From Pomacea canaliculata (taxonomy: Eukaryota), in assembly GCF_003073045.1 (NCBI RefSeq), contig NC_037593.1:29393367-29457366 (forward strand): a stretch of DNA of 64,000 bases. The letters are read 5' to 3'. Shown piece by piece: positions 3,896 to 51,070 of the stretch. Below the pieces are notes generated by a model. It did no database searches, had not been told where the DNA came from, and saw only the letters and a list, made by a program, of their open reading frames with translations. Every line of letters begins with the position of its first letter. Position 1 is the first letter of the stretch. The position numbers and the translations under genes are program-made.

Positions 3896-6750
3896 TTTGA
3901 AAGTACTGTCATGCTCCTGGCTTGTCATTCCACCTGAAGATATACTTCCGATCGCTCTCCGGTAGAGATTGAAATAATACAGTGTCGAGCTTACTTTTAA
4001 ATTCCGTTTATTTACAGTTTGCTGCTGGAAGATCTTTTTTAAAAACTTCCTTTCAGCCGCTGTCGGTAGTGGGTCTCTTGTGTCTGATGTACGGTGTGCG
4101 ACAAGCATCCACTGTTATAGATGTCTGGTGATAGGAAGTGTGATCACGTGACATCAATTTGTTGCTTTGTTTGTTGTTGTTTTTCTCTCTCTCTCGTAGT
4201 TTTGTTAACTAATCTCCCACTTCTCACCACAAGTCAACAAGTACTGTCCTGGGTCTACCTCTTTAATCTTGTGCCGGCTGCTGGTTCTGACAAGGGCGAA
4301 ACATCTACTGTACAGTCTTACACCAGGCTACTCAATGGGATGCAGTTTCTGCCTCTAATCTCTCTCTCTCTGACAGTTTAAAATCTCGTTTCCACACCAC
4401 TGTGGCCCCCCAACCGTCTCCATCTCTCCACACAAGCCACAGGGCACACGTTCGCTGGACATCCGATACCTTTCCCAGTCTGTGCTGCACCTGTGTACCA
4501 CTCACGTATACCCTCTAGCACATACTCTTGTTTGCGCTTGTTTGTAAATCCGTTAGTACAGACCTTGACTGTCCTAGGCAAGTGGTCTACCTGTATGAGC
4601 GTTGATATCATTCATACATACTCAATATACATATTTAAATTATTTAATTTCACGTAAGTTTACTTATTCCCATTTCCCATCTTTCACAGGCAAGAAGATC
4701 AATTGTGGTTCATACACAGATCATATATTCATATAAATCTATGTAGGTATAGTGTAGGTGGTGAACCTTTTATCTTCCAAGGGCTATAGTCTAATATGTT
4801 TAACATCATTTGCAGTACAAAAATTATCTGTTTAAAACTTAGTCTGCTCTGTTTGGTCGAGCTGCAGTTTGCAATGTGTACAATCCTAGCCTGCCTCTGT
4901 TGTCCTCTGTAACCACTATCTGCTTTTTTTTAGATTAGGTGAGCGAAAATTATGCTTTGCCACTATGAAAAACGTCGCAAAACAACTGTTTGGAGTCTGT
5001 AAAATATTTGTTTATAATTAGAAAAGTCCTAGAGGAGCCAGAGTATATAGTAATAAAGCCTTTTTCTCCTAATGCACATGCACCAATAAACTCATAAAAC
5101 CAAATAAAATTTTACCAGCCAAAGTTTTTTTCATTTTCTCATCCTTTGGAGTTCCATAAAAGGATAATGTTGAACTAAGTCCACAGCAATGTCGACGGTG
5201 CTTTTTTTTATTATTATTATTGTTTTATGAACCCATGGTAGAAGATCGCTGATTGAGCCGGTATCCAACCGGAAGTGGCCTAGCCTCGGTTTAGGGTGAA
5301 GACCATCCACACAGGCTGCAGACAGCTAACGAGAAAAATATTATAGGTGTCTTTACCATCTTGTACTTGTATGTGTCCTGTCTATCCTGTAGTACGCGTC
5401 CCTTGCTTGTGCCTTTAAATGCATATTAGTAGTCACTTAATGTACATTTCTGTTGCCATAGTCTGCTCTGCCTTGCCTTGAAGCAACATTGATGTCACCT
5501 CCCAGCCTGCAAGTACTCTTGGGTCCCTCATGGGACCTCTTCGGGAAGAAAGTTGGGTCCCTCTCGGGTTTTGGAGGCGGGACCCTAAGGGGACCTCGTA
5601 CATATGTGTTTAAGTTCGGGTTGTTCTGCTGGGGTGTAAATTTTATATATAACTGGTTAAGTTTGGCTTAGTTGAAAATGATATTCACATCGTTTGCTTT
5701 GACCAACTGCTACACTGACCCTAAATAAGAAATCCCTCCCTAATGTCGGGTCACTATCTAATTGGATTGCTTATGTAATATCGTCGATTTTCTTTACTGC
5801 ATTTATGCTGGAAAAACTGTAGGAAAAATATTTCATTCAGATTGTTTCTTTTTAAGCTTTTTCTTCTTGTTCGTTTAACTGTAGAAGGTTAATTTAGGCG
5901 TTCACCTAAGTTTGAATTTAACATTGTTCTAAGCGAGATCACTTATGAATCTCTTTTTTAAAACGTGTGAGTGTTGGGGGGGGGGGGATTGTGACAAAAT
6001 TTGTGCAGCAAGAAATATATAATATTATCATAAATGTAAAGAGCACCAGAAAGTATAGCTCACTGATATAAGACTGTGCCACATTCAATGCATGCTGCAT
6101 GACCCTGTTCCCTTTTCTTTATTTTAACCTCCCAACACTAGATGCAATGTTTTCTTGAAAGCCCATTCCCCCTCCCACAAAACACCTCCTCCTATTTGAC
6201 TTATTTGATAAACACAAACATTCTTATTTTACGGTTTTCTAGTCTCTCGTATGTGTGTGTGTGTGCGCGCGCGCGCGAGTCTATGTATACTGCGTTCGCC
6301 TCTGCATACCTCGGTCGTAATTACTTTTGCAAGCGCTGATAAGTGTGTGCAAGGGTTCATAATAGCACTCAATGAAAGTGAGAAAGATTCTAGGTGTATG
6401 AGCGATCGTGTGCATACATTCATGCGCGTAAAGGTTCGATCGTGATTTCCAAAAAATATATTTGTCAAACCATTGTATAGTGCCAGTAGAGGACAGAAAT
6501 AAACAACAGCTTCCTAAATCTCAACACAGATAAATAAATCTCACTTCACTGTCATCTCGTTCTATAATATGTGCCTCACATCAGTCTGAGGTCTCTCGTC
6601 TCAACCTGACGCCTGTCTGTTGTCACTTAGAGGTTTGATAACTATTTTCCAGGGAAGTAAATGATTAAATACAAACAGCGCTGTTGATAACTAGTTGGCT
6701 CCCTTTAATTGCTCGACTCCCGAGCCATAATTTGTCCCACACCATAAAAT

Positions 6751-22000: not shown

Positions 22001-22848
22001 TACTCTCCCTGACTTACTCATATTCACTAACAACAGAAATTTTATGTACATGGACATGTATTATAAAATAAACTATCTTTATAAAATTCTTTGATATGAC
22101 CAGTTTTGGTCATAGGAAATAGGCATTTATTTCAGCCATAATGTTCTTTCATATCTGGCATAAGGCTTCATGTCAGCAATTATTATCAAATTCTAAACAT
22201 GAGGCAAAACCTTCACAAAAAAACAGAAATATGAACAACCACCATAAAAGTAAATATACGGCCATGATCACAACACACATTACCTCTACAGTAATATTCT
22301 TTAAACTGCTGTTCCTGATTTAGTTTATGAAAAGAATATGTGACTGTAAGTCTCAAAGTGCATAAAATGATTGTGCTGGTAATGCCACTTACACATAAGT
22401 AGCATTTAAATTCTTATTCAGTCTTGATTATATATAATAACAGTGTGTGAGCCAGGTTACAGATTACACATTAATAAAATATATTTGTTCCAAGATATAC
22501 TAAAGAACCTAGGTGAACTTTTAAAAAGATAAGAGTCTGGGAGAGTCACAAACACAGCACAATCTGTTTCCTTTTACATCTGATTAGTAATATGACGTGT
22601 TATACAAAGAATTTTTATACAGTTTTCTAAAACAGTATTTTTGAAAAGTAGGTGGTGATGGAAAGTAAACAGGCTTTTTATGAACTTGTACCTGTCAAAA
22701 CACTACAAATGAAAAGCTGAAAAAAATCTGTAAGTATAAGCATTCAAAACCCCTATCCCACCAACACACACTCACTTGACCACATTCAATGTTTTCCACC
22801 ATGACAAATGCCCCTACTGCAGCATGTCAATCCTTTCTTGCTACTTAA

Positions 22849-23131
22849 TCAAGGCTTTATATTTAGCATTCTTTCAAAACTAGCAAAGGTATCATAATTA
22901 ACATTCTGTGGCACAAAAAATGCATGGTGGTTGAAATTGGAGGCTTTGTACAAGTTGTCCATCTCATCATCTAGCAAAAGTATTTCTTTTGATTTTATCA
23001 TTATGCCATATTTTGCATACAGTTCATTGACAACAGATGTAATATGAGGCTCTTTACAAAGGAAATGCAGAGATTCTTGTTGATCTTCCGAGTCTGATGG
23101 GGTACTCTGGACAATTACTTTTGTAGCTATT
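22849..23131 (-). CDS. HAD-superfamily phosphatase exon 2 (stop TGA 22851..22849)
   Basis: Acceptor tttgatttttttgttaacag|A. Translation (K)IATKVIVQSTPSDSEDQQ...KYGIMIKSKEILLLDDEMDNLYKASNFNHHAFFVPQNVNYDTFASFERMLNIKP* carries HAD motifs III and IV (K...LLLDDE). It resembles the MDP1 C-terminus FFDDERRNI...G. Total CDS 579 nt, 192 aa. Confidence 0.6.
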
Positions 23132-23544
23132 CTGTTAACAAAAAAATCAAAATAGCAAATGAAGCTGATTGTTTTTATGTTTATAGGATGAACATGATCT
23201 ATTCAGCAGTGTCTAATCATAAAATTTGAACAATAAAACATCTCAAATATTGACACTGTTATTATAAGTGCTATCACTATGTGAATATTCTTTGGAAAAA
23301 ATGGGTTGTCATCAATGCCTTACAAACGTGTTAACATTTTCAAATGACTCTCATCTGTGTTATACATTAGATTCAGGTATTGTTTGCTCTCTGCTATATT
23401 TTGCATAACAATGAAGTTACGTAAAACTTTTGAACAAACTTCAAAACGCTTAACATACTTGATGTATTTCTGTGGACATTGTGTGTACAGTCTTAAATCG
23501 AATTCTTTTATTGACACAATAGAGTTAACTGTATTGACCCTCAC

Positions 23545-23840: not shown

Positions 23841-25790
23841 ATTCGGACACTGCCAATATCTTTATATGAATGTTTCGTTGTGCACTCTTTGAAGATGCTG
23901 CTGGCAATTGCAAAAAAACATTGATAACACCAGCATCTGCGACGCATTTCTCTTAGAAAAGCAAACTAGAATTACTTCCCCTGTTTAAAGATGCCGGTCG
24001 CAACGGCAAACGTTCGTCGCTGTGTTGGTACACGAGCTGTAAAAGCATTTCAGGTTAAAAATTAAAACAAAATAGGAATTATAGTAGTGTTTGAAATATA
24101 TCCGCCCTTACTTATGTCAAACAGAATGCAAAGTTGGAGATAATTGATAATTATTCCTACCATAGTGTTATTTCTTGACTGCGTAGTTGTGTGGGTGTGG
24201 TATTTTGGAGGACTGCATGCATGGCTGCATCTGCTAGACTCAAGATTAAAGAACAGCAGTTGTTCTCCCTCTATCTCTCCCACTTAATAACTTTCAACAT
24301 TGTGTCGTCTAGTCTGTCAGCGTTTGAAACATGATTCATTACAATCTTTTACTCGAAAAAGCAAACCATTCGATAAAGGGGATATAAGTTAATTCGTGAT
24401 TCGATCTTCGTTTTAGTCAACGTGTACATTTGTCGTCTGCTACCCCGTTTCGTGTTTCGTGTTATTTCCCTCATCAGAAAACAAAGGTTATGAGCAGTAT
24501 TAAACTTGAACTATTTCAATGCAGAATGAAAGGCCATTTCACGAACCAGTTTTGAGTATACATGCTGTGTTGAGAACATGCAGAACGAATTAAAATGCTC
24601 ACTCGATCTCCACATGCCACGTAATATATATATGCATGTCGCTATACATATATAAACTAATTTAAAACAGTGCAAATAATTATATCCGAAGGATCGAGAA
24701 GGAAGATATATGAAACATCCGAAACATTTCGAAAATATCCAAATGACTTTACGATTGAAAAATTCGTGATTGTGAAAACCATAGAAATAAATTAAAAGAT
24801 TCGACATACGAATATATATTTATTAATTCTTCCTATCTAGGGGAGTTAAAAAACGATATGTCGGAAAAAAATCATGAATTTGTTTCATTCCGAACGTGAT
24901 AAGACGGGCTATAGATGTTAGCGATTGGGCGAAGAGTTTTCCTGGCCAGACACTGCGTGTTGCGAAATCACCTGCTCTACAAGCACACATTCGTGGTGCA
25001 ATACTTGCCGACCGCACCTCCTCGATCAGTAAGTAGTGTCGTGTTCTTGTTGATTTTGTTGTCGTTTTGTAACATAAATGTATAAACAGTTGGACATTTC
25101 AATTATTTAGGTGTCATTTTCACTTAAGCTGCCGAAAATTAAAAACTTTAAAGAATGCGCATGTACAGTAAAGCCCCGATAATTATAGCCAAGTTTATTA
25201 GAAAGCCGGAAGAAGATCCATAGGTGCAAGTGCACTGAAACAACTGAAAAAATACGATACAATAAATATGTGATTTATTTAGTTACTCTATTCGTGTGTG
25301 TGCTCGTCTGTATTCTTTCGCCGGTCGCTCTATCTATTGGTTTTATATATATAGATGCATATACTGTATAAATTCCTGCCGATAAGAATTTATATTGGTT
25401 TGGGGTGGGGGGATAAGATGTGCACATACGGTACATTGATTTTTTTGTCCCCTTGATCAAGATTTTTTTATTGTTTATATTGTTCAGTGTGATGGTTTTA
25501 TTAGAGGATCGTAACATTAATTGACTTTTGCGTTGATAATTATAAGGGTGCATTTTTTAAAAGTTCAATCTTTTAAAGATCACCGAATCATCTTACATAT
25601 CTTACTCATTGCACATGTTTATACATTTGAATTTAAACTTATTGTTTGTATTACTGAGACTATAAAGGTCAAAACGTAAGATTATCTTACCAAGTGAAAT
25701 GTAAACCCAAAAAGTAAGTTTCTTTTTTCAGTAGTTTTTTTTTTTTTTTTTAATATCGAGCAGTATGAGGTAGGATTATGCATTATATAC

Positions 25791-26144
25791 CAGTGGCGTA
25801 GGAACCAGGGGGGCAGCAGGGGCAGCCGCCCCTCCAAGGAAAAAACAGGGGGGGCAGGAATATCCTTTTGCCCCCCCCCCCCCAATATTTGAGACGTAAT
25901 TCCTCACAAAGAGCAAAGAACTGAAGAAAGGTAGGGGAACGTAGAGAGGAGACGGTCATCACCGTCACAAAAGCGGGCCCTGAGGCAAGTGGAGGCTCTA
26001 ACACCTCTGACGATCAGATCGTGCGTGCGTGCAGTACCCCCCCCCCCCCATCCATCCTTTTTTACGAAATGTGCGAGTGCGAACGCCGTTCACTGTCAGC
26101 AGGGAGTTTGCCCCCCCAACGCCGAACATCTTCCTACGCCACTG
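25791..26144. mobile_element. MITE-like non-autonomous DNA transposon, 354 bp, with perfect 14-bp terminal inverted repeats CAGTGGCGTAGGAA and a putative 5-bp TSD TATAC
   Basis: Left end 25791-25804 is cagtggcgtaggaa and right end 26131-26144 is ttcctacgccactg, its exact reverse complement. The flanks 25786-25790 and 26145-26149 are both tatac. The interior is G- and C-homopolymer rich and non-coding. Confidence 0.7.
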
Positions 26145-27294
26145 TATACATAAACTCAGGTATTGTTTGTTCTGTACCAGAGTACTGTGCATAATAAACT
26201 TTGACTTATAAACTACGATCTATATAACCCTTCATGTCTGAATACATGCATGTCATGACTATGAGCTTTACCCTTGTGGGAAGTGTAGTGTACGATATCT
26301 GAAACTGGAGCGAGGTCGTGTGGGCGTGTCGATCCGGTTCGTTGCTGTTAGTAACGTAAACAGTTTTGCTGACACCACGAAATTGTATACACATCCATGC
26401 TGACACGGATGAAATTTACTTAATTTGTTTTGAAATATTTACACAGTGCGTAGTCTTGCCAAATCAAATTTACTTGGAAGCCCTTGCTCAAGTGCTTAAT
26501 ACGTCACTTCCGGTAGGTTGAACGGGGACGGGGGTCGGGGGGGGCAGTTTCTAGGTCCACTGAACAGACGATGTCTTTATAGTCATCTAGCTACATTTAG
26601 TTACACCGAGGACGGATATTATAGTTCGTGGTTACATACTATTGACACTTACATTTTTCTTTGTAGAAGATCTTCTCACTGCCATTATTTCCTCTTCCTT
26701 CTTCTCCTCTTCGTCTGTCGTCGTCGATCGTTGTCTCAAATATTTCTTTGATCGTCGTCGATCAATCAGTTATACTGGATTATTGATCTCCACATTATAT
26801 ACATATAAATTATTATTATCTAGGTTATAATGCACAATCTAATTTGCTAAACTCGTAGACAGACTGGTTACATGACGAAAGTTTAGAGAGCACTTGTTTA
26901 GATCGCATCAATCAACACGACTGCGTGACACGTTCCCACATGTTTTCACGAAATAAATGTTGGCCACGTCTGTGTGGATTCATGTTGACTTTATTTTTAT
27001 TTGAAATGGTTAACTTAAGATATAATTATTAGCTTAGTTTTAGGTTATAACATAAAGGCAAACATTGCACAACCTTCAGAAATGTACCGGCGTAGGGTTC
27101 TATTAACACTGCCATTGACTCACACGTACGGCTCTGCCTTGCGCAAGATCAATAGAAAAAGCTGTTTCGGTACTTGCGAACGAGATATGCTGTGGTTAAC
27201 CACTCACATGACCTGGTTAGATGCCTTAAAAGTGCAATAGTTGGGTTTAAAAAGATTCCAAGGTGGTATATGAGGCAAGATTCACACGTCGAGG

Positions 27295-28412: not shown

Positions 28413-28558
28413 ATGGCGCAACGTGGAGGTCAGGCCCAGGGTCAGGATAACATCTTCAGGATTGCACCGTACTACTTCATTCATGTTCTTGATCAAAATA
28501 CCAATGTTACAAAGATTGAGATTGGGCCACAGACCTACATCCGCCAAGACAATGAAAG
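28413..28558 (+). CDS. MVP: Major vault protein (MVP) coding exon 1 (ATG 28413)
   Basis: Translation [48 protein letters not shown] aligns with human [39 protein letters not shown]. Donor GAAAG|GTTAGC, phase 2. Confidence 0.9.
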
Positions 28559-45035: not shown

Positions 45036-46168
45036 GTTTGTGACCTCTAGTCTTCAGTCATAGGATAGATATTAAAACTACATAATAGAGAAAGTGAATG
45101 ACTGGGATGACGACATCTTTTTTTTTAATGCCATTACACATGACTGCCAGTTTGAGTAATTTTCCCCCCTTAATTAAAAAAAATTTTGTAATCAGTGGTT
45201 TGATGAACTCTTATAAATAATTGTTTTCTCTGTAGTGGTGAAGAAGTTTTTTTAATCTGGCAATCCTTTTACCATGAATCGTTTGAGAAGACCTGGATTT
45301 GATGAATTTGATAAACCTCTAAGTTTACCCGGTAACCCTGCTAGAATTCAAGATTACTCTTCCTCATAAGGTGCAGCCAAAATTGGTTGCCAGATTTAGA
45401 ACAGTATTTAAAAAAATAAAAGAAACTGTTCAGTGCAAGTGATGACTCAGGGGAGACATTCCAAACTTTTAGGGCCCATGCTTCAGTCTTGGAAATGTCC
45501 TTTCAATCAGTATGATTTAAGATATAGGGTAAATTGTGGAAGATTTTGTTTTGCATTAACTTTTATTTATGTATAACCCCATTTCTTAAACACTATTAAG
45601 AATAATAGTAAATTTAATTTATTGGGTGCGTGATCCCTCCATCAAAGGTTAGCTCAAAGCACTTGACAAAAAAAAATAGACAAAATAACAACACATACAC
45701 GGACACATACAACAAAAGGTGTGTTATGTCTGTAGAATACCACAAGGCAGAATGAAGAAAGATACATCTATATTTGCTCCTGGCTTTCTCAGTCCAGTTG
45801 AATTGTGAGGCTGCAAAATGCTCCTGTCCACATGACAGTTATTCAGCAAAGTAAAAGTTAGCTTGTATAGCTCCCTGTCCATGCCTGTCTGGCAAGCTTA
45901 AGGCATTTGATATAACCAGTCAAATGAACTATGTCAATTGTGACGTCTCCATGTTGAAATAGAATCAAAGCCATAGACGTGGATTGAAGGAGCACCACAA
46001 TCCAAACGAATGATGGCAGGCACATTAAAAGCACACACCAACACGAAAAAGACATCAGATAATATAATACCACAGAACACAACACCCACCAGCCAGTTAG
46101 AAGGGACATCAATCTTGTCAAATTGCTAAATCCTTTTTCATCTCTAACAATTTTGTGTGTGTACACAG

Positions 46169-46371
46169 CAACAGCGGCACATGAGAAATCAAAAGCAGCC
46201 GATGCTAGTTGTGGGAAGATTTTTGCAATGCCTTGGGTACTACTTGACCCTAAGCACAACATGTGTAAGATCTGCATGGATGCTAGCATTGATTGCATCT
46301 TGTTAGAGTATGGTCACATGTGCAAAATGTGGGAAGCGTCTGGCAGACAGTACATCACTCTTGTCAAATGA
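46169..46371 (+). pseudogene. Decayed tandem duplicate of the terminal RING exon (pseudo-exon)
   Basis: It is near-identical to 46620-46861 and includes the acceptor tgtacacag|CA. A roughly 10-bp deletion (ttgacatgta) and a roughly 18-bp deletion (tgtcccatctgcagacag) remove the last RING Cys ligands. The translation ends ...[35 protein letters not shown]. Confidence 0.65.
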
Positions 46372-46619
46372 ACTGTGTTGATTAAGATGTCTCCATGTTG
46401 AAGTAGAATCGAAGCCATAGACATGGATTGAAGGAGCACCACAATCCAAACGAATGATGGCAGGCACATCAAAAGCACACACCAACACGAAAAAGACATC
46501 CATCAGATAAGACAAAAATACAACAGAACATAGCACCCACCAGCCAATTAGAAGGGACATCACTCTTGTCAAATTGCTAAATCCTTTCTCATCTCTAACA
46601 ATTTTTTTTTTGTACACAG

Positions 46620-46861
46620 CAACAGCGGCACATGAGGAATCAAAAGCACCCAATGCTAGTTCTGGGAAGACTTCTGCAATGCCTGGAGTACCACTTGACC
46701 TGGAGTATGACATCTGTAAGATTTGCATGGATGCTAGCATTGATTGCATCTTGTTAGAGTGTGGTCACATGTTGACATGTACAAAATGTGGGAAGCGTCT
46801 GGCAGACTGTCCCATCTGCAGACAGTATATCACTCGTGTCGTCCATATATTCCGATCCTGA
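46620..46861 (+). CDS. RNF34/RFFL: RNF34/RFFL-like terminal exon encoding the C3HC4 RING finger (stop TGA 46859..46861)
   Basis: Acceptor tttttttttgtacacag|CA. Translation (A)[79 protein letters not shown] matches human RNF34 [49 protein letters not shown] almost residue for residue. Total CDS 1167 nt, 388 aa. Confidence 0.85.
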
Positions 46862-50623: not shown

Positions 50624-51070
50624 TTACTTTTGTATATGGCTGGAAATTTTCTTCCTTCGCCACTCACAGATATTTCCATATTCACACATGCCACACTTCC
50701 ATGCCTCTTCTACTTCTACTCCTTCACATTCTCTCTGTCCATGCCAAAACTCTAAGGAATGCAGAACTGTCTGCCACATCCAATCTTCCTCTTCCTTGAC
50801 TTCCACATGACCAATCAAATCATGTGTGTCTTGGTGAACGTATTCAATAGACATAGAGCCAATACAAACCAGACTCTGAGCAGTGGAGAGCAACAGAGAA
50901 AAAAGGTTTCTAAGAGAGACTGTTGACATTGGCAACTGGTCCATGTGCTTTATAATTTCATCACTGAGAGGCAAGTCAGCTGAATCTTCAAGGCAAAGCT
51001 TCTTCAAGAAGAAATCTGCTGACATATTCCCCTTAACTAAGTTGTCCCACAATCTCTTGTAGATTTGCAC
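50624..51070 (-). CDS. EXO5: EXO5 terminal exon carrying the C-x2-C-x5-C Fe-S cluster motif (stop 50624..50626)
   Basis: Acceptor gtgcttttaaaatttcag|GTG. Translation VQIYKRLWDNLVKGN...IGSMSIEYVHQDTHDLIGHVEVKEEEDWMWQTVLHSLEFWHGQRECEGVEVEEAWKCGMCEYGNICEWRRKK aligns with human QVSLYKYIFDAMVQGK...[29 protein letters not shown]...[36 protein letters not shown]. Total CDS 1164 nt, 387 aa. Confidence 0.85.
   Translation of the reverse strand: MQIYKRLWDNLVKGNMSADFFLKKLCLEDSADLPLSDEIIKHMDQLPMSTVSLRNLFSLLLSTAQSLVCIGSMSIEYVHQDTHDLIGHVEVKEEEDWMWQTVLHSLEFWHGQRECEGVEVEEAWKCGMCEYGNICEWRRKKISSHIQK

Follow-up and report, generated by a model that had tools for sequence, protein, structure and literature searches.

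Positions 25791–26144 of the window (the whole stretch of 64,000 nucleotides of Pomacea canaliculata DNA that was analysed) are best explained, with high confidence, as one copy of a non-autonomous class II transposon, that is, a cut-and-paste element with terminal inverted repeats (TIRs), in the genome of this apple snail. The insertion is polymorphic: some sequenced snails carry it, and another has a clean site without it.

Structure and coding capacity of the element

Direct reading of the sequence gave an element of 354 bp at 25791–26144, with a TIR that is perfect over 14 bp and a TATAC target-site duplication (TSD), which confirms what a sequence-only reading of the same DNA had described. 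The parts of the element are as follows.

25786–25790, no strand: left copy of the TSD, TATAC (read from the sequence; the empty allele in contig L005 has a single TATAC here).
25791–25804, plus strand: left TIR, CAGTGGCGTAGGAA (from the sequence and a repeat search; this terminus recurs at 47 metagenome loci).
25805–25832, plus strand: left subterminal module, consisting of CCA, a G6 run and CAGCAGGGGCAGCCGCCCC (from alignment).
25848–25883, plus strand: second subterminal hairpin module, G7-CA ... TG-C13 (from alignment).
25884–26106, no strand: non-coding interior that is specific to the 354-bp variant, with a second C13 run at 26037–26049.
26107–26130, plus strand: right subterminal module, consisting of TTTGCCCCCCC, 7 nt (AACGCCG) and AACATC (from alignment).
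26131–26144, minus strand: right TIR, TTCCTACGCCACTG (from the sequence; the right junction was seen independently in contig L057 of run SRR30938148).
26145–26149, no strand: right copy of the TSD, TATAC (from the sequence and the comparison with the empty site).

The right TIR is the exact reverse complement of the left TIR, and in the repeat search the pairing of the two arms ended at 14 bp. The GC content of the element was 57.9%, versus about 36–37% for the surrounding window, and its homopolymer runs comprised G6, G7, C13, C13 and C7. When aligned with related sequences, the left subterminal module was also found in the short family described below, with W replacing A/T, and its 19-nt block at 25814–25832 was identical in an ENA metagenome scaffold (L059). 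L040 and L059 had the hairpin module at the corresponding place, and the 147-bp form lacked it. The right subterminal module was homologous to the right ends of the short family and of L020 and, read inward, mirrored the G-run of the left end. Both arms carry GGGGGGCW when read inward from each end; this pair resembles the inverted subterminal repeats often bound by transposases, and may have such a binding role here. Folded as single-stranded DNA, the element paired its TIRs and the hairpin at 25848–25883, the latter in the minimum free energy (MFE) and centroid structures alike, with an MFE of -59.4 kcal/mol (z = -2.4 versus shuffles). The element is single copy within the window, and similarity around a TIR match with two mismatches at 50652 stopped at the TIR. 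A TSD of 8 bp was considered and rejected: the corresponding flanks, TTATATAC and TATACATA, differ, and no copy of the family supports a length other than 5.

The open reading frames (ORFs) within the element are of 46–73 aa, with zero Pfam matches and no true homologues in protein searches, in line with the earlier view of the interior as non-coding and of these ORFs as spurious. By exact sequence look-up, none of five small ORFs in or beside the element was on record. A 593-aa composite of the stop-free six-frame segments of the element drew 8000 word-sharing candidates, none of them significant; its word matches were probably swamped by poly-P and poly-G words. An exhaustive phmmer search with the 73-aa internal ORF matched two proteins, P0010 and P0011, and no further copy of the 354-bp type. 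The first was rejected as a spurious tandem-repeat protein, and the second is an ORF called across L059, a related element.

Genomic context

The window consists of animal DNA in which genes are split into exons and introns, with zero Rfam families and zero tRNAs. A 341-aa LRR ORF and a 99-aa exon clustered with XP_025091238.1 (LRRC47-like) and XP_025092511.1 (LOC112563034) of Pomacea canaliculata, with tblastn identities of 99–100%. The loci on either side of the element are as follows.

23840–23544 and 23133–22852, minus strand: coding exons of LOC112563034 (by tblastn; an mRNA contig starts at 23878).
28413, plus strand: start of the major vault protein (downstream ORFs on contig L056 carry Vault domains).

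The element is intergenic, between these divergently oriented genes, 1.95 kb upstream of the start codon of LOC112563034 and 2.27 kb upstream of that of the major vault protein. Neither transcript, as assembled, includes it, so the insertion gives no reason to expect an effect on the host.

Several further features were observed elsewhere in the window. Just upstream of the LRRC47-like gene there is a structural polymorphism, in which window positions 5505–5684 (180 bp) correspond to positions 144–909 (766 bp) of L001, a Logan contig of SRR30938148, with both flanks matching; the difference is possibly another mobile-element insertion or a deletion. At 22433–23266, a perfect 14-bp inverted repeat (TATAATAACAGTGT and ACACTGTTATTATA, 834 bp apart, without matching 5-bp flanks) spans coding exon 2 of LOC112563034 (22852–23133). 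This pair is probably due to chance, because simulations expect roughly one of its kind per window. Two adjacent ORFs on the minus strand (45858–46298, 146 aa, and 46303–46749, 148 aa) are very similar to each other, as if a gene fragment had been duplicated in tandem or a repeat lay here. Finally, an ORF on the plus strand at 1016–1372 ends in a Cys/His-rich tail, EFHFILCCPCLKDLRKNFIP, which we take, by eye, to resemble the C-terminus of a non-LTR retrotransposon ORF2.

Empty and filled sites

The protein-indexed collection included Logan assemblies from several runs on this taxon, and the nearby 99-aa exon was used to retrieve one such contig, L005 (SRR34434949, 4930 bp). It aligned to window positions 28541–26145 and 25790–23299 with a 5-nt overlap, and exactly 25791–26144 was absent from it. 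The empty site in L005 reads GCATTATATAC / ATAAACTC (in the longer reading, GGATTATGCATTATATAC / ATAAACTCAGG), with one TATAC and zero footprint; the filled site in the window reads GCATTATATAC, then the 354 bp, then TATACATAAACTCAGG. At closer range, the filled junctions are CATTATATAC / CAGTGG on the left and CCACTG / TATACATAA on the right, and the empty junction is CATTATATAC / ATAAACTC (in SRR34434949, CATTATATACATAAACTC). A second contig, L057 (SRR30938148), starts inside the element and has the right junction CCGAACATCTTCCTACGCCACTG / TATACATAAACTC. An empty-site paralogue or allele with a single TATAC is what the sequence-only reading had proposed to look for.

Cut-and-paste excision normally leaves a footprint, so we interpret the clean site in L005 as the locus before the insertion. 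Over about 5 kb of flanking sequence, substitutions relative to the window amounted to 1.7% in L005 (empty) and 0.45% in L057 (filled). The insertion is absent from the more diverged haplotype and present on the reference-like one, and therefore arose after these haplotypes split. The source of L005 could be the same species, a sister taxon or very close relative, or a hybrid; even if it comes from a sister taxon or a hybrid, it is an orthologous empty site.

Related copies and variant interiors

A scan of metagenome contigs found the 22-nt terminus in 47 loci, almost all of them from the WGS sets VSKX and VSKW. Because the terminus-bearing contigs encode animal genes (dynein heavy chain, phosphofructokinase and topoisomerase II, for example), they represent snail host DNA within a metagenome. 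The consensus of the short family is 147 bp. Perfect 5-bp flanking repeats were present at 17 of its 29 non-redundant complete copies, and other lengths fitted none; a looser right-end search added L029, with the TSD TTTTC, and gave TAAAG beside a decayed right end in L053. The tally of TSDs and targets used below comprises 18 family copies and the window copy, 19 sites altogether. Divergence from the 147-bp consensus had a median of 2.1%, with several copies at 0%, and this MITE family of about 147 bp is young. With the empty site and these other copies, the description of the element as a recently inserted, MITE-like, non-autonomous TIR DNA transposon with a 5-bp TSD has been upheld.

At two loci, L019 (38–183) and L050 (2464–2609), the short MITE has a shared left flank, TGGGTGCGTTTT, and different right flanks, with a matching TSD (GTTTT) only in L050. 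This discrepancy could reflect a chimeric assembly across the repeat, or an allele that has been rearranged.

The window copy shares with the family only its left nt 1–42 and about 45 nt on the right, the latter stretch consisting of TTTGCCCCCC, a short spacer (7 nt in the window copy), AACATC and the TIR. The modules of the ends are ordered from the TIR to the G-run to CWGCAGGGGCWGC.GCCCC, and are followed in the window copy, L040 and L059 by the second hairpin, G7CA...TGC7+. The interior at 25884–26106 had no match in the 267 kb of snail DNA compared. The other copies that the sequence-only reading had anticipated were therefore found in part: the terminus recurs, in the form of about 147 bp, while neither those 267 kb nor the called ORFs yielded the 354-bp variant a second time. 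As the ends are common and the interior is unmatched, the 354-bp copy is placed as a longer sister variant of the 147-bp family. Its interior could be a one-off acquisition and not a subfamily.

Two other arrangements of these modules were observed. Contig L040 (1–1768, read on the minus strand from 1768) holds a third variant. It shares the 22-nt terminus and has a pair of G-run/C-run hairpins, after which the sequence is unrelated for over 1.2 kb; a clean right end is lacking, and the closest candidate for one has 3 mismatches and lies 1234 bp in. In that unrelated sequence, on the opposite strand, there is what we take, by eye, to be a Crypton-like tyrosine-recombinase C-terminal fragment (HSLRVTAATRLFDAQIDEQLI...RTGHSS). 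In L059 (250–356, minus strand), a scaffold of the ENA metagenome assembly ERZ23491123 found through the ORF called across it, the subterminal layout is that of the window copy. Its 19-nt block is identical (CAGCAGGGGCAGCCGCCCC) and is accompanied by a G-run-CA...TG-C-run hairpin, but the terminus ahead of them is a different one, CCGGGGCGGCGGATTC.

Alternative explanations and superfamily assignment

A perfect 14-bp inverted repeat is by itself expected about once per window, and the flanks of the element are AT-rich, which would suit a coincidental pairing of an inverted repeat with a repeated 5-mer in unique sequence. Perfect 14-bp inverted repeats within 2 kb number 4 in the real window, versus a mean of 1.06 in simulated first-order Markov windows. 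Because such repeats alone are not rare, the signal lay in the combination of TIR and TSD and not in the TIR alone: identical 5-mers at the spacing of the element had P = 0.0013, and inverted repeat and TSD occurred together in 0 of 300 simulations. Against a chance origin, moreover, an exact empty site exists, the same terminus is present in 47 other loci, and 18 other copies have perfect 5-bp TSDs of their own. The exact empty site and the 5-bp TSDs of the other family copies settle that this is an insertion; the chance reading is already refuted, and its probability is vanishingly small. That the insertion is instead the solo LTR of a retrotransposon, with 4–6-bp TSDs and short inverted termini, is extremely unlikely. 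The 5-bp TSD and the sizes of 147–354 bp fall within what LTRs allow, but LTR termini are TG...CA, the opposite of the CA...TG found here. The inverted repeat is also a perfect 14 bp, and 0 of the 47 loci had two direct copies around an internal region, the ends pairing instead as short inverted units.

For a TIR transposon, the superfamily that we consider reasonably probable is the hAT5 lineage of hAT. Because no autonomous partner was found, we infer this membership only from the sequence of the ends, the lengths of TIR and TSD, the composition of the targets and a taxonomic prior. hAT5 is a lineage of hAT with 5-bp TSDs (PMC12730594, citing Kapitonov & Jurka 2007, Repbase Reports 7:1188), has invertebrate and fish hosts, and is 'unusual in having 5 bp TSDs' (PMC9004415). 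The terminus of the element, CAGTG, fits the hAT terminal motif YARNG (PMC3014272), and its third base is G; the legend of Fig. S7 of PMC1131882 describes this base of hAT termini as 'always G', the counterpart in Transib and the RSS heptamer being C. Of the DDE superfamilies in molluscs, hAT is one of the richest and most ubiquitous, and a single Transib element was present across all surveyed mollusc genomes (PMC10294476). No transposase was found beside a family terminus in the terminus-bearing metagenome contigs, and no ORF with the DDE/RNase-H-like core and the hAT dimerisation domain of a hAT transposase was found beside one in the fetched contigs. Left ends without a nearby right end were considered as autonomous partners and rejected as contig-end truncations or decayed copies, with the exception of L040. 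The terminus and the variant-specific right end had 0 matches in viral and prokaryotic genome collections, and a full-text literature search for the TIR sequence returned 0 papers.

The 5-bp TSD had previously been taken to favour Transib-like or other 5-bp-TSD superfamilies over hAT. Such TSDs are a property of hAT5 and Transib alike, and a 5-bp TSD should not by itself be taken as Transib, because hAT5 must be considered too. A non-autonomous element of Transib type, whose ends would be recognised by a RAG1-like transposase that makes the 5-bp TSD, would agree with TSDs of this length in the window copy and across the family, and with 5'-CA...TG-3' termini, which are those of the CACTA/Mirage/Chapaev/Transib clade (PMC12730594). 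It would be expected, however, to begin with CAC, perfectly conserved at positions 1–3 across all Transib families, to have a TIR close to the 38-bp consensus of heptamer, 12/23-bp spacer and A-rich nonamer (AAAAAAATC), and to lie in strongly GC-rich targets, as Transib does even in AT-rich genomes (PMC1131882). In the snail element the heptamer position is CAGTGGC, with CAG in place of the invariant CAC. The TIR is of 14 bp, and the sequences at positions 20–28 and 31–39 from the end, GGGGCAGCA and GGCAGCCGC, do not provide an A-rich nonamer after a 12- or 23-bp spacer. Nor are the targets GC-rich: across the 19 sites, GC was 34% in the TSDs, 36% in 15-bp sites and 38% in 35-bp sites, with a background of 37–42%. 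Given in addition that surveyed mollusc genomes hold only that one Transib element, we regard a Transib origin as very unlikely, and the earlier lead towards this superfamily was not sustained. A MITE of some other or undescribed superfamily that makes 5-bp TSDs, with ends that are hAT-like by coincidence, is somewhat unlikely. It would accord with the negative outcome of the search for a transposase linked to these ends, with the nature of YARNG as a degenerate motif of just 5 nt, and with conserved G-run/C-run hairpin modules that are not tied to any described hAT family. Yet Transib and hAT5 are the only lineages with regular 5-bp TSDs in the literature consulted (PMC12730594, PMC1131882, PMC9004415), and the end motif, the short TIR and the targets that are not GC-rich are all as expected for hAT; both points speak against this alternative.

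Discussion

The comparison of alleles shows that the 354 bp entered at one TATAC, whose duplication produced the 5-bp TSD. We propose that the element depends for its mobility on a DDE transposase supplied in trans from a gene elsewhere, one that probably belongs to the hAT5 lineage of hAT and not to Transib. This transposase would recognise the 14-bp TIR together with the inverted subterminal GGGGGGCW motifs and excise the element; insertion would take place at a 5-bp staggered cut in the target, the repair of which would create the TSD. By analogy with the Ds-type derivatives of one autonomous element, the 354-bp copy may be a sister variant that combines the same ends with a different interior.

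Low divergence, intact TSDs and the presence/absence polymorphism together suggest recent transposition activity. It would be a further step, and one that we consider quite improbable, to regard the element and its 147-bp relatives as a currently active, undescribed system with 5-bp TSDs (within hAT5 or in a new lineage), in which the hairpin modules function in transposition. If this were true, the modules could be shared across taxa or could have moved between them by horizontal transfer (compare L059).

The element is an ordinary, well-documented kind of mobile element, and has little importance beyond annotation. For annotation, 25791–26144 should be masked as a DNA-transposon copy, and ORFs called across it disregarded. 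The locus is also a clean presence/absence marker between Pomacea haplotypes and could serve population genetics. More broadly, the youth of the family (copies 0–2% from the consensus, with intact TSDs) suggests that DNA transposons are, or recently were, active in an invasive snail.

In comparison with known systems, the element is like hAT5 in its 5-bp TSDs, its CAGTG terminal motif and its short, 14-bp TIR. It is also like hAT5 in having an invertebrate host, from a phylum in which hAT is ubiquitous, and in its form, a non-autonomous derivative whose ends are conserved while its interior varies; it differs in that no hAT transposase gene with these ends was found and in that its TIR-adjacent G-run/C-run hairpins were matched to no described hAT5 family. 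The non-autonomous Transib elements TransibN1-3_AG (PMC1131882) have in common with it 5-bp TSDs, 5'-CA...TG-3' termini, a TIR and the want of autonomy, but in the snail element the third base is G and not C, the 38-bp TIR of heptamer, spacer and nonamer is lacking, and the targets are not GC-rich. The hAT MITEs of Ds1 type and others (for example, Mar in Drosophila, PMC3517528, and the Ds elements in maize, PMC3260210) are likewise short, non-coding and mobilised in trans, and have TIRs and subterminal sequence in common with their relatives while their interiors differ; their TSDs, however, are of 8 bp, in contrast to the 5 bp of the snail element.
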